Origin: Candidatus Thorarchaeota archaeon
GTDB taxonomy: Archaea; Asgardarchaeota; Thorarchaeia; Thorarchaeales; Thorarchaeaceae
Assembly (NCBI GenBank): GCA_048882045.1
Contig: JBHLRZ010000009.1
Coordinates: 32,384-96,383 of the forward strand
Direction of reading: 5' to 3'
DNA: 64,000 nucleotides
Under the pieces are notes generated by a model. That model searched no databases, had not been told where the DNA came from, and worked only from the letters and a program-made list of their open reading frames with translations. Positions 7,529 through 37,176 of this stretch are shown piece after piece (positions within the stretch are counted from its first letter, which is position 1; each line of letters opens with the position of its first letter). Made by a program: the position numbers and the translations under genes.

Positions 7529-8086
7529 ATGAAGAACTTACTGAGTAGCATCATGGCTGTTGTCGTAGGCTCTACACTAATAGTGTGGCTCACGAACCTT
7601 ACGCAACCAACATATCCTGAACCTTTCGACGTGATATGGATGCTTCTCATAGGAAGTAGTACACTTCAATCCACGTTGTCTTTCATCACAGATGTGAACA
7701 ACGTACTAGCGTTTCTTGCATCATGGATTGTGATCGGCGTAATCATTGGACCTTTCTCTAAGTTCGGTTGGAATACAGTTCGGTCAGTGTTATGGGTTGG
7801 ATTCATTCACGCTATTCTGTCGTTGGCATCACTTCTTCTGTTGAATCCTGCGTTCTGGGAAATGTCATCTAGAAACTTCGAACTCTTGTATCAGTTTGCC
7901 ACCTCAATGATTGTGGCGTTACTCGCACTACCTTCTGCCCTCCTTTCAGCTCTGTTGATTAAACGAATTCGAACACAGACAGATCCTCCTATCCCAGTGA
8001 AGATCGAAACTATATGTGAGTGCGGAGCTGTATTCAAATCTAGACCAATGCTCTGTTCAGAATGTGGGCGGAAACTGTCTGATTAG
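7529..8086 (+). CDS. Multi-pass membrane protein with C-terminal Zn ribbon
   Basis: 4-5 hydrophobic segments; CECG...CSECG. Confidence 0.7.
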   Translation: MKNLLSSIMAVVVGSTLIVWLTNLTQPTYPEPFDVIWMLLIGSSTLQSTLSFITDVNNVLAFLASWIVIGVIIGPFSKFGWNTVRSVLWVGFIHAILSLASLLLLNPAFWEMSSRNFELLYQFATSMIVALLALPSALLSALLIKRIRTQTDPPIPVKIETICECGAVFKSRPMLCSECGRKLSD

Positions 8087-27980: not shown

Positions 27981-28382
27981 ATGAGTATTAAGAAGTCTGA
28001 AGCTAAAAGTCTGAAGCCAGGAAGCTACTTCCTGATTGAAGGAGAGCCATGTAGAGTGGTATCAATAGAGAAGTCAAAACCTGGAAAGCATGGTGCAGCA
28101 AAAGCAAACATCGTGGCAATTGGCTTCTTTGACAATCGTAAAAGAAACGTCATCATGCCAGCAGACCGAATGGTCGATGTTCCACTCATTGACAAGACCA
28201 GTGCTACAGTGATCGCTGACATGGGTGAAACCTACAGTTTGATGGACAGTGAGACCTTTGAAACCTACGAGGTTCCAAAACCAGCAGATGATGAAATCGC
28301 GTCGAAGATTGAATTGAATGTAGCAGTAGAAGTCTGGAACGTCATGGACCGAAAAGTGATTACTAGGGTCAAGACATCTTAG
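27981..28382 (+). CDS. eif5a: Translation factor aIF5A
   Basis: Hypusine motif SKPGKHGAAK. Confidence 0.96.
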   Translation: MSIKKSEAKSLKPGSYFLIEGEPCRVVSIEKSKPGKHGAAKANIVAIGFFDNRKRNVIMPADRMVDVPLIDKTSATVIADMGETYSLMDSETFETYEVPKPADDEIASKIELNVAVEVWNVMDRKVITRVKTS

Positions 28383-28466: not shown

Positions 28467-28880
28467 ATGTCTGTAGACCAGCTTGAGAAATGGTTGACAT
28501 CACTCGACCTACCTTTTGAACTTCTTCAAGATATTCACACCTTCAGGGTGATGTGGGAGGTTGAAGAAGCTACTTTCGAGATTAGAATTGCAATTCGTGC
28601 TGACAAGTGGATTCATGTTTCGGTTCTTCTACTGAAACCTGATGAAATACCGCATGAAAGTAGAGAGGAGCTATTTGAAATCCTACTTCGTGAGAACTGG
28701 ATGCTTGATGATGTAACCTATTCCATGGATGAGAAAGGCAATATTTACTCTGAGAATGACATACCAGAGCAGACTAATCTTGAGAATTTCAAAAGTGAGC
28801 TCGACGCAGCCATCTTTGGATTGGAACGTTTTGTAACAATCGTTTCCAGTAGACTTGGAATTAATCCTAAGGGAGTTTAG
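28467..28880 (+). CDS. YbjN-like protein
   Basis: ELFEILLRENW...YSMDEKG pattern. Confidence 0.6.
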   Translation: MSVDQLEKWLTSLDLPFELLQDIHTFRVMWEVEEATFEIRIAIRADKWIHVSVLLLKPDEIPHESREELFEILLRENWMLDDVTYSMDEKGNIYSENDIPEQTNLENFKSELDAAIFGLERFVTIVSSRLGINPKGV

Positions 28881-28974
28881 AGAACTCATTTGATTCAGAA
28901 GATCTTCCAATCCAGAACCAGAAATGTGTGATTCTACTTATTGTAGATAGTGAAGAGATGAACTCAGGTGGAAA

Positions 28975-28998
28975 ATTATGCGAAGAGAGAGATTTGAT
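28975..28998 (+). repeat. Degenerate copy of the tRNA-Leu 3'-end repeat (R6)
   Basis: attatgcgaagagagagatttgat; 18/24 identical to atggtgcggagggcgagatttgaa. Confidence 0.55.
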
Positions 28999-29023
28999 AT
29001 GGAAGTGAAACGTTCGTGACTAT

Positions 29024-29482
29024 TTGATGACAGATCATTTCTATTCGACCGCATGCAAAGAATGTGGTGGATACTGTTGCACATTGGGAGGTACTCTTGC
29101 GACACAGTTGGAAGTTGACCGAGTCATTGAAGCTGGATATCCGAATAAATTCGTTGAAATTACAGAGAACTGCTATATTACAGATTTTGGAAAAACCCTG
29201 ATTTGCCCGTATCTTAAAGAGTCCAAATGCGAAATCTATCCTGTGCGTCCATTGCTTTGTAGGAAGTATCCCATTTTCTCAACAGACGGGGAAGAGCATT
29301 ATTTGGTCCATTGTCCTCTAACTCAATACCTTTCAAAAGATGATATCGCTCAATGTATTGAAGCTGCCTTAGAGGTTCCTGAAGAACTATACACATGTAC
29401 ACAGAAATTTATGGCTCCTTTTGGTTCAGGAATTGACGAACGAATGCGTAAATTCAGGATGGAGCCTATCAATCTTGAATGA
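29024..29482 (+). CDS. YkgJ/CxxCxxCC family Zn/Fe-chelating protein
   Basis: CKECGGYCC...CPYL...CEIYPVRPLLCRKYP. Confidence 0.88.
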   Translation: MMTDHFYSTACKECGGYCCTLGGTLATQLEVDRVIEAGYPNKFVEITENCYITDFGKTLICPYLKESKCEIYPVRPLLCRKYPIFSTDGEEHYLVHCPLTQYLSKDDIAQCIEAALEVPEELYTCTQKFMAPFGSGIDERMRKFRMEPINLE

Positions 29483-29563
29483 AAAGAGTGAATGAAGATA
29501 TGATTCTCTTTTTCGGGAATTGAAGTAACAGATAGGTGCTACAACTAATAGAGTGGAGTCCTG

Positions 29564-30412
29564 TTAGTCATGTAGTTTCTCAATTTCTATTGGATATGAT
29601 CCCAGAACTTTGACAAAGAGTGACCTAGATTCCAATCCCTCTAATGCCTCTGCACAGATTGAATCATCAATATGGCCTACAAAGTCTAAGTAGAAATTAT
29701 ACTCCCAGAGATTTTCTTTCGTCGGTCTCGATTCGATCTTAGTCATGTTGATACCCCTCGTGGCGAATTCGCCCAAAGCGTTGTAAAGGGCTCCTGCAAC
29801 ATGTTTGGTCGAGAAGATTACTGAAGTCTTATCATTTCCAGTTGGAGGAGCTTTGTCTTTGGATAGAACAAAGAACCTCGTGTAGTTGTTCCTAGTGTCA
29901 GCAATATCCTGAGCCAGAATTTTCATGTCATATATCTCTGCAGCTCTTTCAGCCGCCACAGCAGCTGCATCTCCCAACTCTTTCTCTCTAATCATTTTCA
30001 CACTTCCTGCTGTGTCATAGGTAGAAATCATTTCGATGTCTAAACCTTCTAAGTAGCTTCTACATTGTCCTAAGGCTTGGGGATGGGAATAGACCACGTT
30101 GATGTCACTCAAGGCTGATTCTGGATTAGCTATGAGACAATGTTCTATTCTTAGCGCCAGTTCTCCTCCCACTCTCAAATCAGATTGAAGGAATAGATCG
30201 TATACTGGGTTGACACTCCCCTCGATTGAATTCTCAATAGGTACAACCCCAAACTTGGTTACATCATCTTCAACAGTTCTGAAGACTTCTGAAAAACTCT
30301 TGCAAGGTTTGGGTCTGGCTCTGGGACCAAAGATTTTGATAACTGCAGATTCACTGTAGGCGCCAACCTCTCCCTGAAAAGCAACTTCTACATCTTGATT
30401 CAAATCAAACAT
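29564..30412 (-). CDS. pheA: Prephenate dehydratase with ACT domain
   Basis: AFQGEVGAYSE, PIENSIEG, SHPQALGQC, NYTRF, KIESRP. Confidence 0.93.
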   Translation of the reverse strand: MFDLNQDVEVAFQGEVGAYSESAVIKIFGPRARPKPCKSFSEVFRTVEDDVTKFGVVPIENSIEGSVNPVYDLFLQSDLRVGGELALRIEHCLIANPESALSDINVVYSHPQALGQCRSYLEGLDIEMISTYDTAGSVKMIREKELGDAAAVAAERAAEIYDMKILAQDIADTRNNYTRFFVLSKDKAPPTGNDKTSVIFSTKHVAGALYNALGEFATRGINMTKIESRPTKENLWEYNFYLDFVGHIDDSICAEALEGLESRSLFVKVLGSYPIEIEKLHD

Positions 30413-30482
30413 TTTCGTTGTCTCAAATCACTTGTTTCACCTAGCTTTAATGCTCTATGCATTTCAGCGCAAGAAGACGACG

Positions 30483-30506
30483 ATGATGCTGAGGGTGAGG
30501 GTCCAG
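30483..30506 (+). repeat. Degenerate copy of the tRNA-Leu 3'-end repeat (R5)
   Basis: atgatgctgagggtgagggtccag; 14 of the first 17 bases match; abuts the stop codon at 30507. Confidence 0.55.
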
Positions 30507-30992
30507 TCATTCACTGGAGCCAAGTATTTTCCTTAAGGAACCAATGTCATTGATGAAGACTAGGGTCAAAATTGAACCAGCGAGAGGTGTAATCAGAACT
30601 GGCCTAACAATCCAATCTTCTAGTACTCCATATATTTGGAATGATAGCCAGACCCATGATAGAAGAATCACTATAGATACAGGAAAAACTACCTTAATCA
30701 AGGACTCTCTGACCATTAGGATGATTAGAAGTAGAACATAGATCATAATCAACCAAAGAAATGGTAGAGTTGATGCATCAGAAACACCTTCTGCAATCTG
30801 ATATCCGGCCTGAAACTGGGAGATACTAGAGTACGCACCAAAGAGATAGATGACAATTGGATCAGACCAACCTCCAGTTACAATTACAGGAGGTTCTGAA
30901 TCTGCGATTTGGTTCAATTCTGCAACTGGCATGAATAAAGAGACTAGAATGAATATACTGACTGCAATAATCCCTTTTACATCATCTCTCAT
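30507..30992 (-). CDS. Hypothetical membrane protein (cassette 5)
   Basis: About 4 TM segments; fills the interval R5-R4. Confidence 0.65.
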   Translation of the reverse strand: MRDDVKGIIAVSIFILVSLFMPVAELNQIADSEPPVIVTGGWSDPIVIYLFGAYSSISQFQAGYQIAEGVSDASTLPFLWLIMIYVLLLIILMVRESLIKVVFPVSIVILLSWVWLSFQIYGVLEDWIVRPVLITPLAGSILTLVFINDIGSLRKILGSSE

Positions 30993-31049
30993 CTCACACC
31001 ACTATAATCCGTAGTAAAATTAGATGGAGATATGTTTTTTGAAGAAAGC

Positions 31050-31074
31050 ATGGTGCTGAGGGCGAGATTTGAAC
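31050..31074 (+). repeat. tRNA-Leu 3'-end repeat (R4)
   Basis: atggtgctgagggcgagatttgaac; one mismatch to 35696-35720. Confidence 0.95.
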
Positions 31075-31086
31075 AGAAGTCAGGAC

Positions 31087-32088
31087 TTAGACAGATGATT
31101 TGACATTATCTATTGAGTTCCATAGAGTTTCAGGTGAAATAAGTTCAATGTTTCCACTGTGTATCATGTTCTGAAGTTTCTGCATCAGGAGAGAGTTCAC
31201 AGGTGTAGCTAAACCGTATATTTCTCCTAAACTCACAATTTCACCAGTCAAGAATTCTTCTTCACTTGAAGAACCACGGAGTAATGATTGGTATGTAGAG
31301 GAGATAAAGTCAAGGCTATCTCTTTCTTGCTTCATCCAGGGTTCAAATGAAGCATCATTACTAAGAACTGTCATCAACTGGTCAAGAACTCGATAGTTCG
31401 GTTCAATCCCGGATTTTTTGACCACATTTCGACCTTCATCCCAGGTAGCAACGAGAATTTGTCTCAAGTGTTTATTCTTCAAACTTTTTGGAAATCCAGA
31501 CCCTGTGAGGGCAAGAGGCAAATTCATGAGATTCAGAACTAATTTTGCCCAGAGATCACTCTCAATATTAGTGGAAATATCGGTCGGTATTCCGGAGGAC
31601 ATGTAGTCACAGAGTCTCTTTATCCGCTCTGTTTCCGTTCCATCCAATTCCCCAATTATGCAATTGCCCTTGCGAGTGTATTCTATCTCTCCTGGTTCTA
31701 GATAACTTGCAGTAAATCGAACGACACCAGGAATCACTCTCATTGTTCCAATAACCTCTGATATTAACGTGGGATTCCTGATTCCATTCTGTAATGAAAC
31801 AACTGGAGTTGACTTTCCAAGATGAGGCGAGAATTCTTCGACTGCTAGTGTTGTGTCTTGAGTCTTGACTGTGAGAAAAACAACATCAGCTCCATCAACA
31901 CAGGATGAATCTGTTGTCGCATTGATTCTAATTGTGAAGTCTTCAAGCCCTTTAACCTTTAGACCATGTTCTCGAATCATGTCAACATGGTTTTGCCGCG
32001 CAACAAGAACAACATCATGACCTGCTCTATGAAGAGTAGCACCCAGAATACTTCCTATGGCTCCAGCTCCATACACCACAGCTTTCAC
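31087..32088 (-). CDS. panE: Ketopantoate reductase family protein (cassette 4)
   Basis: VYGAGAIG, LTVKT, SLQNGI, WAKLVLN, SSTYQSL, EFLTGEIV. Confidence 0.82.
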   Translation of the reverse strand: MKAVVYGAGAIGSILGATLHRAGHDVVLVARQNHVDMIREHGLKVKGLEDFTIRINATTDSSCVDGADVVFLTVKTQDTTLAVEEFSPHLGKSTPVVSLQNGIRNPTLISEVIGTMRVIPGVVRFTASYLEPGEIEYTRKGNCIIGELDGTETERIKRLCDYMSSGIPTDISTNIESDLWAKLVLNLMNLPLALTGSGFPKSLKNKHLRQILVATWDEGRNVVKKSGIEPNYRVLDQLMTVLSNDASFEPWMKQERDSLDFISSTYQSLLRGSSSEEEFLTGEIVSLGEIYGLATPVNSLLMQKLQNMIHSGNIELISPETLWNSIDNVKSSV

Positions 32089-32179
32089 TATTCAACCTCC
32101 CACTTCATTAGAAGTATGCAAAGCGTGATTATACTTTGATAAAAATGAATCTCCGCATTGAAGACATGTAGAATAATCA

Positions 32180-32203
32180 ATGGTGCGGAGGGCGAGATTT
32201 GAA
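32180..32203 (+). repeat. tRNA-Leu 3'-end repeat (R3)
   Basis: Exact atggtgcggagggcgagatttgaa. Confidence 0.97.
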
Positions 32204-32211
32204 TTCAAATC

Positions 32212-34710
32212 CTAAGTATCTTCAAGCAGACCATCAAGTAGTTCTTGGATTTCTTGTTCCCTGTTCGTTAGTTCTTGTTGTATGATTTTCTCCTTTCTCT
32301 TTTTCAGCTTTCGATGAGAATATGTGAAAGATGGCACCAAGAGGGCAAGAATCGACACTGCTGTAATGGGTATTGGACTGTGAATAAACATCTCCATCAC
32401 TGGAACATTGGCGTCATTTGGATCAAAGCCATTTGCTAGTTCCCACGTATCACTAAATCCATCGCTATCTCCATCAGCTGAATTTGGATCTGTATTGTTC
32501 CGATACTCCTCAAGATTGGTTAGTCCATCATCATCGTAATCTTGCGCGGAGTCATCAACTAGCGGATTCGTTCCCCTTTCGACTTCCCAAGAATCAGGCA
32601 TGAGGTCCCCATCCGAATCAGAAGACCCTGGATTAGTACCGTGAATATACTCCTGAAGGTTAGTGAGGTCATCACCATCCAGATCATTCATGGAATCATC
32701 CTCCAGTGGATTTAGCCCGTAGAAGACCTCCCAAGCGTCTGGAATCGTGTCGGAATCACTGTCAGAAGAATGCGGTGACGTTCCGTAAAGATACTCATCA
32801 AGATTGGCGAGTGTGTCATCGTCCGGGTCTTCTGCAGCATCATTACGCAATGGATCCAAAAGATTAAGAAACTCCCAATCATCAGTCATTGAATCCAAAT
32901 CGGAATCAACCGCAATCGGACTTGTGCCAATACGATACTCCTCAAGATTAGTCAGATTGTCATCATCTGAATCAAAGGAGGAGTCATCGAAGTCATCATT
33001 CAAACCATAGTAGCGTTCCCAGCTATCAGTCATCCGGTCATTGTCAAGGTCTGACATATCCTCGAGATTTATTATGAACACGTCGCCAGATTCAACAGTT
33101 GACATATTGAAGAACGTTGTTGCTGGAAAATCAACACTCTTGGTGTGCCCTGCCGCCAGAATGGTCCCTGAGTTACTCGGTCGAACACAACAAATGTCAT
33201 CACTCATTGTTCCTCCAATGTAAGAGGACAAGCGAATCTCATTTACGATATAATCTAGAACGAACAAGAATCCATCAGAAGACTCACAGGTACTATCAAA
33301 TGGACAAGTTAGGGGAAAATCCAAGGAATTGGTAGAACCCCCTACACAGATATTATCAGAACTGTCGACAAAGAAGCTTTTTCCTTCTTCCTTGCCACTT
33401 CCGCCAAAGAACTCGGAATAAACTAGTTCGTAATGAAATTCGGGGGGATTAGCATCTTTCCGAATGACGAAGAACTTGGTTGATTTGGCATCCACATGAT
33501 TAAGGCCCGAAGTAGTGCGTGGAAAGTCTGGTGATTCTGTCCTACCAGTAAGGAAGATATTCATCTCCTGATCGACAAAAACATCCAAACCACTATCAGC
33601 GAGCTCTCCACCAAGATAATCAGAGTAGAAGAGCTCCTGACCATTCTCATGCAGTTGACACACAAAGCAGTCTGAAAGGCCATTGAGTTCTCCTTCAGGA
33701 GGCTCTCCTTCTTGCACTACACATGGAAAATCATCTGAAAAAGTGTATCCTGTCACCGTTGCACGACTGTTTCGAACAGACATGGAAACGATGCAATCGA
33801 TATTACTCCCACCAAGAAACGTCGAGTATTCGACTCCTGTAAGTGTTGAATCGAACTTGATGATGAATCCATCAGATACTCCACCATATGTCATATCATA
33901 ACCATCTTTTATGGGGAATATTGGGGATTCGGTCCACCCTGCAACATACACAGATCCTTCTTCATCAATATCAACTGATTCAGCCCAATCTGACCGATTA
34001 CCACCGAATTTGAAAGAAAACACCAGAAGACCTGTTGTGGAATCAATCCCTAGAACAAAGCAATCCCAACCTTCTCTATCCCAATCTTCCCCTACTAGAA
34101 CAGAGTTCCCTGGTCCACCCAAAGATGGGAAGTACCATGACTTTGTTATACCTGTGATAATGATAATCCCAGTAAGATCGATGGCGACGGATACGGCAAT
34201 ATCCTCTTCCTCGCCACCAATGTAGGTTGAGTATAGAAGATCGTTTCCGTCTGAATTGAAAATAGCTATGAAGCAATCTGTATCCCCTCCAGCATGTTCA
34301 TACTGAATTGGATTTTGAAGAGGAAGATTGCGGGAATTTGTAGAACCAACGATAACAATACGTCCGTCTGAAAGCAGGACCATGTCTGCAATCCGCTCCC
34401 AGCTAGAGCCTCCGTAGATTGTTGATGATTGAATTGGATTGAAAAGATCAATCTCCTCCAGCGATTCGCCTGATGGTTTCATATTTCCGTGAAAAGATCT
34501 TTGCAGTGGGATTGTTGAGTTGTCTGCAGGAATGGTAGTGATTGAATCAATTTCCAAAGGGAGGAAGGGAGAGAGAAATAGCATCATGAATACTATGCAG
34601 AACACCACCACAGAAAGCCCCCATCTGCGTCTCAATATGACTACTATCCTTCTACAGACACCTTTCCGCATATATGTTGGGTCTACGATATCAATAACTT
34701 TGCGGTGCAC
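32212..34710 (-). CDS. Surface protein with SBBP-type beta-propeller repeats, acidic TSP3-like Ca-binding repeats and a TM anchor (cassette 3)
   Basis: YSTYIGG/YSTFLGG...G.T.S.DFP repeats; D.D.D.LTNL.EY and DSD.D.M.D.WE repeats; hydrophobic segments near both termini. Confidence 0.85.
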   Translation of the reverse strand: MHRKVIDIVDPTYMRKGVCRRIVVILRRRWGLSVVVFCIVFMMLFLSPFLPLEIDSITTIPADNSTIPLQRSFHGNMKPSGESLEEIDLFNPIQSSTIYGGSSWERIADMVLLSDGRIVIVGSTNSRNLPLQNPIQYEHAGGDTDCFIAIFNSDGNDLLYSTYIGGEEEDIAVSVAIDLTGIIIITGITKSWYFPSLGGPGNSVLVGEDWDREGWDCFVLGIDSTTGLLVFSFKFGGNRSDWAESVDIDEEGSVYVAGWTESPIFPIKDGYDMTYGGVSDGFIIKFDSTLTGVEYSTFLGGSNIDCIVSMSVRNSRATVTGYTFSDDFPCVVQEGEPPEGELNGLSDCFVCQLHENGQELFYSDYLGGELADSGLDVFVDQEMNIFLTGRTESPDFPRTTSGLNHVDAKSTKFFVIRKDANPPEFHYELVYSEFFGGSGKEEGKSFFVDSSDNICVGGSTNSLDFPLTCPFDSTCESSDGFLFVLDYIVNEIRLSSYIGGTMSDDICCVRPSNSGTILAAGHTKSVDFPATTFFNMSTVESGDVFIINLEDMSDLDNDRMTDSWERYYGLNDDFDDSSFDSDDDNLTNLEEYRIGTSPIAVDSDLDSMTDDWEFLNLLDPLRNDAAEDPDDDTLANLDEYLYGTSPHSSDSDSDTIPDAWEVFYGLNPLEDDSMNDLDGDDLTNLQEYIHGTNPGSSDSDGDLMPDSWEVERGTNPLVDDSAQDYDDDGLTNLEEYRNNTDPNSADGDSDGFSDTWELANGFDPNDANVPVMEMFIHSPIPITAVSILALLVPSFTYSHRKLKKRKEKIIQQELTNREQEIQELLDGLLEDT

Positions 34711-34749
34711 GTAAGCAAAATAAGCAGAATCATTGTTTTAGATATGAAA

Positions 34750-34773
34750 ATGGTGCGGAGGGCGAGATTTGAA
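34750..34773 (+). repeat. tRNA-Leu 3'-end repeat (R2)
   Basis: Exact atggtgcggagggcgagatttgaa. Confidence 0.97.
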
Positions 34774-34843
34774 TCAACGATAGAGGAAATGGTGAAGTTT
34801 TCAGGAGTATTCTATTTGAGTGTATTTGGGGGTAGAATAAAGA

Positions 34844-35218
34844 ATGTCCATACAATCAAAATTGGAGGCTCTCTCCTACATCTGTTTTGCAGGTATGATA
34901 ATTGGTTTTATAATGACTGTGGGCTATTCCCTGTTTATATGGTATCTATTCACAATGGCAATGCTTGCAGTATTTTCCATAGTTTTGATAGTCACTATAT
35001 ATTTTGGACTTAGAGATCATTCATTAGAAACACGAAAGATGCCTTGGTGGAGTAACATTGGAGTATTCATAATGGGTCTTGGAATATTCCTCTATACATT
35101 CCCCGAAATTGGAATCATATCTACTCTTACAGGCGTGATTGTTGTTTTATATGGAATATTCTACAAGGAAAACAGAAATTATGAGAAGATTAACTATGGT
35201 GCGGAGGGCGAGATTTGA
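34844..35218 (+). CDS. Small 4-TM membrane protein (cassette 2); ends inside repeat R1
   Basis: Hydrophobic; C-terminal GAEGEI and the TGA stop are encoded by the repeat. Confidence 0.7.
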   Translation: MSIQSKLEALSYICFAGMIIGFIMTVGYSLFIWYLFTMAMLAVFSIVLIVTIYFGLRDHSLETRKMPWWSNIGVFIMGLGIFLYTFPEIGIISTLTGVIVVLYGIFYKENRNYEKINYGAEGEI

Positions 35219-35219
35219 A
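35196..35219 (+). repeat. tRNA-Leu 3'-end repeat (R1)
   Basis: Exact atggtgcggagggcgagatttgaa. Confidence 0.97.
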
Positions 35220-35292
35220 AATAGCAGTAATCATTGAATAACAGTGCTTATCTGGGTCTTGAAGAAATGGAGTAAATAGTGGAGGGTGCTGA

Positions 35293-35718
35293 TTGAAAGG
35301 TAACAATCAGGAGTCCAACAAGGAACTTTCGACAGAATTAGTAGCTCTCTTTGAATTGTATATAAGCATATTACTACTTCTCATGGTATCAGCAATCAAT
35401 ATCAGAACTAGCGAGCTAAGGGATCTAACTATTCTTGTATCTGGCTTGTTTTTTGTTTTCTTGATATATTTTGGATACAAAGTAATACTAAGTGAAACTC
35501 CTGTATGGTCAGTGAATGCAAAGAGATTGTATGGGATTGGTTCTACTCTATTTCTTATAGGTGGTTCAATTGGTTTTAGCTCGACAAATTTCGAAGTAGG
35601 AGTTCTCATGATACTTGTGGGATTGATCTTGATTCTAATTGCCACTCTTCATCCAGATGCCCGAATCAGGAAGACTAGAACTATCAGAGAAGAAGATGGT
35701 GCGGAGGGCGAGATTTGA
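35293..35718 (+). CDS. Small 4-TM membrane protein (cassette 1); ends antisense within the tRNA 3' end
   Basis: GGAGG upstream; hydrophobic; ends GAEGEI-stop. Confidence 0.7.
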   Translation: MKGNNQESNKELSTELVALFELYISILLLLMVSAINIRTSELRDLTILVSGLFFVFLIYFGYKVILSETPVWSVNAKRLYGIGSTLFLIGGSIGFSSTNFEVGVLMILVGLILILIATLHPDARIRKTRTIREEDGAEGEI

Positions 35719-35814
35719 ACTCGCGAACTCCTACGAGATTCCCCCTTCATGATGAACTATCACGAAGACAGGGATCTGAACCCTGCGCCTTTAACCTGGC
35801 TTGGCAACCTCCGC
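35697..35814 (-). tRNA. tRNA-Leu(CAG), CCA encoded, with a ~30-nt non-canonical intron (about 35739-35768)
   Basis: Acceptor stem GCGGAGG/CCTCCGC-A-CCA; anticodon arm CAGGG-TTCAGAT-CCCTG; variable arm CTC-GTAG-GAG; T arm GCGAG-TTCAAAT-CTCGC. Confidence 0.93.
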
Positions 35815-35864: not shown

Positions 35865-36386
35865 TCAGTTCAATGATTTCATAACATCTAGAAGGCTATT
35901 CATTTCAGGACAAGCACCGTGATCTCCAGAGAGGACCTCTATATGACGGATGACACCCATCTTGTCAATCACAAACACAGCACGTTTACCATATCCCTCC
36001 TTAGGCACAAAACAGTCATACTTCAGTGTGACTCCACCTAGTGGATATTGGTCGGACAACAATGGAAATCCTAGCGTGTCAATACTGTCAGTCCATTCTT
36101 TGTTTACCTCAACCGAGTCCATGTTGATTCCCAATACTTGAGTGTCGTGAGCATTGAAATCTGTCAGATGTTCCTTATAGAACAAAAGATAGTCCTTGCA
36201 GGATTCGTTCAATCGTCCAGGATTGAGTGCGAGGGCAACATTGTATCTATCATGGAAGTCTGATAGCTTGACGGCATTCCCATCCTGGTCCGGAAGAAGG
36301 AAATCAAGAGCTTCTTCTCCAGGGCTCAAACATACATACTGTTCACGAAGAATCATAATGATGCACAGGTTCTCTTCCGAAACCAC
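35865..36386 (-). CDS. Peroxiredoxin-like (AhpC/TSA) protein; start probably near 36329
   Basis: DFLLPDQDG, PGRLNESC, FPLLSD, KRAVFVIDKMG. Confidence 0.8.
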   Translation of the reverse strand: MVSEENLCIIMILREQYVCLSPGEEALDFLLPDQDGNAVKLSDFHDRYNVALALNPGRLNESCKDYLLFYKEHLTDFNAHDTQVLGINMDSVEVNKEWTDSIDTLGFPLLSDQYPLGGVTLKYDCFVPKEGYGKRAVFVIDKMGVIRHIEVLSGDHGACPEMNSLLDVMKSLN

Positions 36387-36420
36387 TCATATTAATTTAA
36401 CTATTGTTAATATATTTTGG

Positions 36421-37176
36421 TCATATTAACTGCTCGCGATAGGACCAGATCTGGTCCCTGAGTAGATTCCAGTCTCCAATGTTCTCTATGACCTCTTGCT
36501 TTTTCATCGCCTCTCTGGTGGGGCCATCATACACTATCCGACCATCCTTTATCACCGCAACAGAATCAGTCCAGTTCTCTATGAAGAACCTGTTGTGGGT
36601 TGTGAAGAGTATACTGATGCCATCTTGTCGGAGTTTTTGGATGATCCCAATCATCGTTGTCACCATCTTGAAGTCGAGTCCTGTGAATGGCTCATCAAGT
36701 ATCAGAATGCCAGGACGCATCGCAATCAGACCCGCGAGTGCAACCCTCTTTGCCTGTCCATGACTCATCTGATTCACAGGTCTTTCGATAAACTTTGACA
36801 TCCCAACTCTGTCCAGAGCCCATTCTACTCGTTCAGCCACTTCTTCCTCAGAGAGTCCAAGATTGCGAGGGCCAAAAGCAACATCCTCCCAGACTGTCGG
36901 GGCGAAGAGTTGGTCATCAGGATTCTGGAACAGGAAGCCAACATTTTGTCGAAGTTCCCAAAGATTGTCCTTGGTGATCCTTCGGTCAAAGACGAAGATC
37001 TCTCCCGAATCTGGTTGTAACAGACCGAGTATCAGTTTGAAGAGAGTGGTCTTTCCAGACCCATTCAGTCCTACGAGAGCCTTCTGCTCTCCCACATGAA
37101 GCTGTAGGTTGATATCCTCCATTTTGAAGTCAGGATATCTGAAGAACACATGGTTAACATCGATTGCACATGTCAT
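36421..37176 (-). CDS. cbiO: ECF transporter ATPase CbiO/NikO
   Basis: GLNGSGKTT, FQNPDDQLF, SHGQAKR, LDEP. Confidence 0.9.
   Translation of the reverse strand: MTCAIDVNHVFFRYPDFKMEDINLQLHVGEQKALVGLNGSGKTTLFKLILGLLQPDSGEIFVFDRRITKDNLWELRQNVGFLFQNPDDQLFAPTVWEDVAFGPRNLGLSEEEVAERVEWALDRVGMSKFIERPVNQMSHGQAKRVALAGLIAMRPGILILDEPFTGLDFKMVTTMIGIIQKLRQDGISILFTTHNRFFIENWTDSVAVIKDGRIVYDGPTREAMKKQEVIENIGDWNLLRDQIWSYREQLI

Follow-up and report, generated by a model that had tools for sequence, protein, structure and literature searches.

Why should a transfer RNA (tRNA) gene be followed by a train of copies of its own 3' end, and why should those copies become poorer with distance from the gene? The question is raised by a stretch of 64,000 nucleotides of contig JBHLRZ010000009.1 (assembly GCA_048882045.1; this whole stretch is the window below), which belongs to a 3.6-Mb, 93%-complete metagenome-assembled genome of a Thorarchaeota (Asgard) archaeon. 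The gene is tRNA-Leu(CAG), located on the minus strand at 35697-35814 (Rfam RF00005, 48.5 bits at 35700-35814); it contains an insert of about 30 nt in its variable region and is detected by ARAGORN in intron mode only. The repeat unit adds one T to the final 23 nt of the gene, which extend from T-loop position 54 to CCA (35696-35719, minus strand). Between the tRNA and the outermost tail copy lies a 6.7-kb block (28999-35695) that holds seven genes, one per cassette, with three open reading frames (ORFs) on the plus strand and four on the minus strand. We consider it probable that this block is a lineage-specific stack of seven single-gene cassettes, assembled through recurrent recombination events at the 3' end of tRNA-Leu(CAG) and mostly by entry on the tRNA-proximal side. 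In what follows, G000 denotes this genome, G002-G035 its congeners, L numbers fetched loci or metagenome contigs and C numbers contigs; cassettes c1-c7 run from proximal to distal, as do the tail copies R1-R6.

All six displaced copies lie on the minus strand, at 35196-35219 (R1), 34750-34773 (R2), 32180-32203 (R3), 31050-31073 (R4), 30483-30506 (R5) and 28975-28998 (R6). Outward from the tRNA they match the tail at 24, 24, 24, 23, 16 and 18 of 24 positions, which reproduces exactly the series that a sequence-only reading of this DNA had put forward as polar decay. Searches of 300 first-order Markov shuffles of the window, both strands included, gave an expectation of 0.05 matches per window at 18/24 or better, so R6 is significant by itself. 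At 16/24 or better the expectation is 2.7 per window, and an unrelated 16/24 match occurs at 8033; R5 is thus not significant alone and was confirmed through orthology instead. In G004 (C187) an exact tail copy stands at the junction matching R5, where it closes an 89% identical pheA cassette, and a well-kept copy starting A-TCAAATC ends the YkgJ cassette at the R6 position in ten or more other genomes or contigs. Because these orthologous junctions in relatives carry well-kept tail copies, we conclude that R5 and R6 are both genuine. A seventh junction, between pheA and YkgJ (29486-29590), was located by alignment to the end of the G004 pheA cassette and to six YkgJ cassette starts; the alignments reveal two cassettes whose intervening repeat has been erased here.

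The shape of the decay differs from the slope that the raw counts suggest. The c5 type of cassette has a shorter identity block (AGGT-AATC..., from position 58), even where it adjoins a tRNA, and the repeat of the YkgJ type begins at position 55. Three to four of the eight mismatches of R5 and one of the six of R6 are therefore cassette-specific left edges and not decay, and against the 19-20-nt repeat of its own cassette type R5 carries about five true substitutions. The edge-corrected mismatch series outward from the tRNA reads 0, 0, 0, 1, about 5, erased, 5. Repeat integrity does drop away from the tRNA, as the polar proposal held, and the pattern is a step, four intact junctions followed by three old ones, rather than a smooth slope. 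The same proposal had noted that R4 and R5 share one substitution; this is true but uninformative, since such sharing has a chance of about 0.1 given the eight mismatches of R5. We rejected it as a signal, as it fits chance and is unlinked to the cassette in the G010-like copies.

The block is absent from the same site in relatives. In G004, G005, G006, G014, G016 and G018, aIF5A and YbjN genes sit directly behind tRNA-Leu(CAG), with an ATP-binding cassette (ABC) transporter gene on the other side. Since aIF5A, with or without YbjN, adjoins this tRNA in congeners, the 6.7 kb represent a lineage-specific insertion. In the window the same genes form the distal flank on the plus strand (aIF5A at 27981-28382, YbjN-like at 28467-28880; Pfam and synteny with congeners), and the conserved 5' flank on the minus strand (35865-37176; Pfam and synteny) encodes a peroxiredoxin and a CbiO-like ABC ATPase. 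The old boundary with the conserved distal flank is marked by R6, the outermost and decayed repeat, and homology to the flank in G004 (C150) begins 92 nt beyond R6.

Each interval between tail copies contains a single gene. Cassette c1 (35220-35695; ORF 35293-35718, plus strand) encodes a 141-residue membrane protein whose last codons and stop fall within the tRNA tail, and c2 (34774-35195; ORF 34844-35218, plus strand) a 124-residue membrane protein that ends in R1. Both are small multi-pass membrane ORFs that finish inside the repeat (...GAEGEI-stop). We tried and rejected c1 and c2 as one family on the basis of this shared ending, which follows from one of the three frames of the repeat; the similarity between the two proteins is not significant (E 0.17). 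Homologues of c1 occur in G002 (77% identity) and G018 (41%), always in the tRNA-proximal position, and the ratio of nonsynonymous to synonymous divergence (dN/dS) against G002 is 0.48. The 141-residue family comprises two cassettes in G002 and is also present in G018; only five of its proteins are found in a database of 5.8 billion. For c2, the 27 congeners hold no homologue. Cassette c3 (32204-34749; ORF 32212-34710, minus strand) encodes an 832-residue secreted repeat protein with SBBP beta-propeller and TSP3 repeats (Pfam), whose only relatives are paralogues within its own genome at 36% identity or more distant.

Cassette c4 (31074-32179; ORF 31087-32088, minus strand) encodes a PanE/ApbA-family ketopantoate reductase-like protein (Pfam). 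It occurs in none of 27 congeners, and relatives with 69-91% amino-acid identity are found in other Thorarchaeota contigs, which argues that cassettes are not foreign but circulate within a Thorarchaeota pool. Elsewhere in this genome (C34:16321-17333), tRNA-Leu(CAA) is followed directly by a PanE paralogue of 27% identity; the tail of that tRNA differs from the repeat. The 161-residue ORF of c5 (30507-31049; ORF 30507-30992, minus strand) has no Pfam, PHROG or NCBIfam match; the same 550-bp cassette adjoins the tRNA in G010-like contigs, with a dN/dS of 0.31.

The two distal cassettes had been described by the sequence-only reading as a unit of ordinary metabolic genes, a description that does not survive comparison, as both pheA and YkgJ are single cassettes with good repeats in relatives. 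The pheA gene of c6 (29564-30412, minus strand; prephenate dehydratase plus ACT domain, Pfam) is the sole copy in this genome, is present in 5 of 28 genus genomes and has a dN/dS of 0.11; in G004 it forms a separate 918-bp cassette bracketed by good repeats. The YkgJ-like CxxCxxCC protein gene of c7 (29024-29482, plus strand; Pfam), a cassette of about 490 bp, is widespread in the genus, with 19 distinct copies found and dN/dS values of 0.10-0.34. It stands behind tRNA-Leu(GAG) in seven congeners and behind tRNA-Leu(CAG) here. The dN/dS values of the YkgJ, pheA, 161-residue and 141-residue ORFs (0.10-0.48) indicate that the cassette genes are real.

Arrays of this kind are found throughout the genus. 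Tandem tail copies occur behind tRNA-Leu(GAG), (CAG) or (UAG) in 28 of 28 genomes, and all three of these tRNAs share the tail. Exact tail copies average 5.0 per genome, compared with 2-3 in most other genera of the family. A census that drew on the fetched loci and on 80 tail-carrying metagenome contigs recovered 124 closed cassettes in about 60 families, mostly 450-650 bp long, with a single ORF and about 90% coding; 58 of the ORFs run opposite to the tRNA and 28 in the same direction. The cargo is of accessory type and includes GNATs, PrcB_C, OLD/AbiEii-like ATPase-nucleases, AbiV, Imm5-like proteins, a thioesterase, a hydrolase and repeat proteins. Larger cassettes in L029 and L109 encode OLD-family ATPase-TOPRIM nucleases (AbiEii-like AAA) and a HEPN AbiV protein.

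The cassettes behave as units. Three examples are found in many species together with both of their repeats: the 490-bp YkgJ, the 550-bp unit with the 161-residue ORF and a 490-bp GNAT. The same cassettes are found in other orders and behind other tRNA-Leu isoacceptors. Their order is swapped between species for GNAT and YkgJ, for thioesterase and YkgJ, and for pheA and YkgJ. L127 has two cassettes more than L097, and these lie precisely between its tRNA and its YkgJ cassette. The sequence of L127 is a mosaic with breakpoints at tail copies: it shares 99.6% identity with L133 over the tRNA, the first cassette and an upstream flank of more than 1.6 kb, and the part that starts with the YkgJ cassette shares 96% identity with L097 and only 82-89% with L133. 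In G035 a tail copy is present on at least nine very short contigs, with many under 1 kb, and the assembly evidently broke at the repeats; this breakage is a hint that cassettes in that population have many alternative neighbours. Other tRNAs of G000 are also followed by orphan copies from T-loop to CCA, two behind tRNA-Phe (C54:11749 and 12131) and one about 1.5 kb behind tRNA-Thr (C19). Longer copies of 3' halves lie behind a tRNA-Lys/Pro-like group at C49:9770-16924 of the same genome. The system is thus a general one in this organism, of which the array described here is a single aspect.

If the decay of a tail copy measured age, the copies should drift as unconstrained sequence does. We compared the distal repeats of twelve YkgJ cassettes that retain recognisable repeats (55 pairs). 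These differ at 0.111 per site, compared with 0.385 at synonymous sites of the flanked gene, a rate 3.5 times slower. In three lineages with synonymous differences of 0.24-0.32, 0 of 44 repeat sites had changed where about 13 changes were expected. The corresponding YkgJ junctions are erased in this genome and in G002, G018 and L098. Repeat identity is thus no simple clock, since retained repeats are conserved beyond neutral expectation. This bimodality, in which a copy is either kept or erased, suggests that a tail copy may be maintained or refreshed while its junction recombines and may decay afterwards. The identity of a repeat would then reflect the time since the last recombination at that junction, a quantity that runs parallel to position here without having to do so in general. 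The excess conservation further suggests that the tail copies are working sites.

The direction of growth was approached through the distribution and composition of the cassettes. Among 27 congeners the number of genomes with each cassette gene, from proximal to distal, is 2, 0, 0, 0, 1, 4 and at least 10. Distal cassettes are the more widely shared, as had been predicted, but the correlation of rank with breadth is not significant (rho 0.59, p 0.16, n = 7). In 19 other arrays with at least two orphan copies, 28 pairs were concordant and 12 discordant with polar decay (permutation p 0.017), although these arrays are mutually related. A pyrimidine-rich, trailer-like run is found at every cassette start, with 80% pyrimidine after orphan repeats, as after real tRNAs; such runs are expected if each cassette once adjoined the working tRNA. 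The claim that the proximal cassettes are AT-rich holds locally (17 G+C in the 60 nt at 34981-35040). Cassette G+C fractions from proximal to distal are 0.37, 0.35, 0.43, 0.41, 0.38, 0.43 and 0.40, with 0.444 for the window; low values are limited to c1, c2 and c5, and those of c1 and c2 go with membrane proteins. Codon adaptation, which the sequence-only reading had suggested as a check, has no gradient: the values are 0.755, 0.774, 0.765, 0.777, 0.794, 0.760 and 0.796, with a genome mean of 0.771 and a standard deviation of 0.017.

Several results weigh against growth at the tRNA end by an integrase, and we set them out together. The breadth correlation falls short of significance, as stated, and the polar trend elsewhere is weak, with clear exceptions such as the mismatch series [5,1,1], [4,2,3] and [3,1,3]. 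Variation in the order of cassettes between species counts against a strictly polar reading. In the tRNA-Leu(GAG) array of this genome (C19:30000-44000) the junction repeats are erased from the tRNA-adjacent one on; it comprises cassettes known from other genomes (one of an unidentified family, a GNAT and two more), followed by a conserved distal flank. In contigs, no insertion or excision polymorphism was seen within this strain's population. Tyrosine recombinases (PF00589 and PF16795, Xer/XerA-like proteins included) and serine recombinases (PF00239) were not found in this 93%-complete genome. PF00589 matches are confined to 8 of 28 genomes of the genus and lie near no array, and the 80 tail-carrying metagenome contigs contained nothing integrase-like in tblastn searches with the large ORFs of the integrase loci of congeners. 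A search for attP in IMG/VR viral contigs with the tail 23-mer and a 19-mer gave no exact match. Finally, the left edge of the identity block varies, lying at 58, 55, 54, or 49 and further upstream, as is also expected of co-conversion tracts.

Additional searches for an enzyme addressed other chemistries and other places. Reverse transcriptase (PF00078) and the endonuclease families HNH (PF01844) and LAGLIDADG (PF14528) are absent from this genome. Of 28 congeners, 9 have HNH genes, all of them more than 1.5 kb away from any tRNA or tail copy, and the GIY-YIG matches (a UvrC-like gene and a 98-residue ORF on C30) lie outside the arrays. No tail copy at up to 6 mismatches occurs in the integrase-bearing loci of congeners, and the cassette ORFs include no recombinase, integrase fragment or replication gene. 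The number of integrases per genome correlates weakly with that of exact tail copies (rho 0.32, p 0.10). Across 111 orphan copies, information content falls sharply 5' of position 54. Williams in 2002 reportedly defined a T-loop sublocation class of integration into tRNA genes, which the sharp start in the T-loop and the extension to the 3' end would fit. A symmetrical core site, proposed from weak conservation of a T-stem half upstream of the orphan copies, was rejected because the signal is driven by 14 of 78 flanks with longer identity blocks.

From these findings we put forward the following model. The recombination target would be the segment from T-loop position 54-58 to CCA, and each event would restore the tRNA and leave a displaced tail copy behind the new cassette. 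Because each event regenerates the tRNA in this way, new cassettes would mostly come to lie next to it and older ones would be pushed outward. A cassette would be a small non-autonomous unit in which one gene is combined with a tail copy of 19-23 nt and a pyrimidine-rich trailer, and it would move within the Thorarchaeota gene pool and among the three tRNA-Leu loci that share the tail. A recombining junction would keep or refresh its repeat; once idle, the repeat would decay and the cassette would be locked in. Here c1-c4 may represent a live or recent block and c5, pheA and YkgJ a locked one. The simplest idea, and the most likely source of the enzyme, would be a site-specific recombinase provided in trans by an element that escaped binning with these genomes. 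The original proposal, in which new cassettes enter at the tRNA end and old ones become fixed, agrees with the insertion, the drop in repeat integrity, the breadth of the distal genes and the additional cassettes of L127; the shuffled order, the weak trend elsewhere and the failure of repeat identity as a simple clock speak against it as originally worded. That proposal is thus partly supported; reworded, it would describe a stack of two ages grown from the tRNA end, with repeat integrity marking the activity of a junction rather than plain age.

The same topology could arise by a different route, a serious rival that we nevertheless regard as rather unlikely. Homologous recombination or break repair, perhaps triggered by a nuclease at the tRNA as in intronless homing with co-conversion, could use tail copies and flanking genes as homology without any site-specific integrase; such a process would give a less strict polarity, and gene conversion against the selected tRNA copy would hold the repeats uniform. 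The lack of integrase, resolvase and reverse transcriptase in this genome favours such a route, as do the variable left edge, the homogenisation of repeats beyond the neutral rate, the truncated 5' tRNA-Leu pieces beside whole genes and the mini-introns at shifting sites that include the left edge of the repeat, and the L127 mosaic resembles a long conversion tract. However, this genome holds no HNH or LAGLIDADG gene, the HNH loci of congeners contain no tRNA or tail copy, and 61 cassette ORFs include no nuclease except OLD-family defence genes. Furthermore, 19-23 bp is a short homology, and this route leaves unexplained how about 60 unrelated genes each gained a tail copy with an edge in the T-loop. 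Conversion may alternatively account for the gradient without any reference to age, if conversion from the selected tRNA copy fades with distance and so keeps near copies perfect. Retained repeats do evolve more slowly than synonymous sites, and the c1 relative in G002, at a synonymous divergence of 0.25, is flanked by perfect repeats in both genomes. Yet R3 is perfect at 3.5 kb from the tRNA, L021 has perfect copies at ranks 3-4, first-rank copies with 4-5 mismatches occur in other arrays, and the tRNA-Leu(GAG) array of G000 is erased from its first junction. As distance alone does not predict identity in these cases, we find this explanation of the gradient very improbable.

Integrated elements arranged in tandem at tRNA genes are familiar from archaea and bacteria (PMC6563490; PMC4383910), and unselected scars are expected to decay. 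The array could on these grounds be read as the passive remains of a few large integrated viruses or plasmids deleted down to single genes, the gradient giving the age of the scars and no cassette system being involved. We disfavour this reading and hold it to be highly improbable, because unit-sized cassettes with both repeats recur across species, orders and tRNAs, are about 90% coding with one ORF and no integrase fragments, and have repeats conserved beyond neutrality. A more far-reaching proposal, that Thorarchaeota run a dedicated, integron-like system of gene capture and shuffling, is one that we advance only tentatively and think doubtful. In such a system, recombination would take place at the tails of tRNA genes and some protein genes, driven by an enzyme that belongs to none of the known families of integrases, resolvases or homing endonucleases; selection would keep the tail copies as functional sites, and the mini-introns would be part of a conflict over them. 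The preferred reading, a stack of single-gene cassettes entering mostly beside the tRNA, is the one that we carry into the comparisons below.

Polar growth anchored at a tRNA has been described for the tycheposons of Prochlorococcus (Hackl et al., bioRxiv 10.1101/2020.12.28.424599), in which tandem elements are split by partial tRNA copies and newcomers push older elements inward. Remnants and partial tRNAs are scattered distally there, and heterogeneity peaks next to the tRNA (bioRxiv 10.1101/2020.12.28.424599). This published model is the same as the polar proposal made earlier for the present locus. Tycheposons, however, encode their own tyrosine (or serine) recombinases and replication modules and measure several kb, whereas the units here are single genes of about 0.5 kb, the arrays contain no such modules, and the host is an Asgard archaeon. 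By the variability criterion of tycheposons, the seven cassettes give the breadth series reported above (at least 10 of 27 for the most distal, with the same non-significant correlation), and their order is shuffled between species. Thus growth from a tRNA anchor is already published, and what is new here is its small-unit, integrase-free archaeal form.

Archaea, too, are known to re-use integration sites at tRNA genes in tandem (Krupovic et al. 2019, PMC6563490). Islander-type islands (PMC4383910) resemble the present arrays in that an intact tRNA is accompanied by a displaced 3' fragment as a direct repeat and the site is re-used. Similarly, the identity block here extends from the T-loop to the 3' end of the tRNA, and the insert is absent at the same site in relatives. 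The integrase that defines such islands was not found here; the units are far smaller, and the same modules appear in shuffled order across species.

The comparison with integrons, which the sequence-only reading had drawn through the polarity of attI along with that of the leader of clustered regularly interspaced short palindromic repeats (CRISPR), holds for topology only; no equivalent of a leader, attI or integrase was found. As in integrons, most cassettes of about 0.5-1 kb carry one ORF, the accessory pool is large (GNATs, immunity and defence genes), cassettes are reordered, and entry is presumed to occur at one end. Integrons have IntI, attI and a promoter, whereas here no tyrosine recombinase was detected and the 5' flank consists of peroxiredoxin and ABC transporter genes. 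Their attC sites are inverted-repeat hairpins, whereas the present sites are direct tail copies with no conserved sequence on the other side; their cassettes are mostly promoterless and in one orientation, whereas those described here lie in both orientations without a common promoter logic.

Gene modules that are bounded by recombination sites, lack a recombinase of their own and accrete in tandem are known as cis-mobilizable elements (CIMEs) in Streptococcus and as pdif modules in Acinetobacter plasmids. For these the enzyme is known, the integrase of an integrative and conjugative element for the former and XerC/D for the latter, whereas no tyrosine recombinase was detected in the present genome. 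Intronless homing or mobile endonuclease ORFs, such as phage SegB-type genes and fungal mitochondrial mORFs, likewise leave a displaced gene 3' end behind the insert. The flanks of L127 look co-converted in the same manner, and truncated tRNA pieces lie by whole spare tRNAs in some congeners, but no endonuclease gene was found at any tRNA-Leu array examined. Retro-insertion primed by a tRNA, in the manner of the Mauriceville plasmid, involves a reverse transcriptase and would place genes antisense to the tRNA with their 3' ends at the tail. In contrast, this genome has no PF00078, and one third of the cassette ORFs have the orientation of the tRNA.

Asgard archaea are the closest known relatives of eukaryotes, and gene gain in their large, flexible genomes is poorly understood. 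The arrays show accessory genes stored and reshuffled singly at tRNA tails with no recognisable recombinase, and pheA is among the genes so placed. The pattern of repeat decay offers a practical read-out that separates active junctions from locked-in genes, and the enzyme behind tail recombination is a concrete target. If the chemistry proves ordinary, with an unbinned integrase, the finding would be a small-unit archaeal version of tycheposon-type islands.

Some minor observations concern the strain population and the tRNA genes. In strains about 90% identical to this one, three joints (29487>35696, 30471>35688 and 30475>35196), each with sides of only 25-36 nt, place YkgJ or pheA next to an intact tail copy. 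One run (X7) covers 28538-30521 near-identically and nothing in 30536-35608; no contig bridges the interval, so this run gives no evidence that the cassettes are absent. Comparison of loci L019-L038 shows that the mini-intron of about 30 nt in tRNA-Leu (35739-35768 in the window) shifts in congeners, where it occupies the variable region, the inside of the T-stem or precisely the left edge of the repeat (53/54). Two introns interrupt tRNA-Leu in G002 and none in G005, G006, G016 and G017. In L021 (G014:C19), L026 (G004:C187) and L029 (G015:C124), complete tRNA-Leu genes have truncated 5' pieces of tRNA-Leu next to them or close by, which stop at the T-stem or at the D-arm. In G004 a whole tRNA-Leu(GAG) on the opposite strand sits between the 5' piece and its displaced tail.

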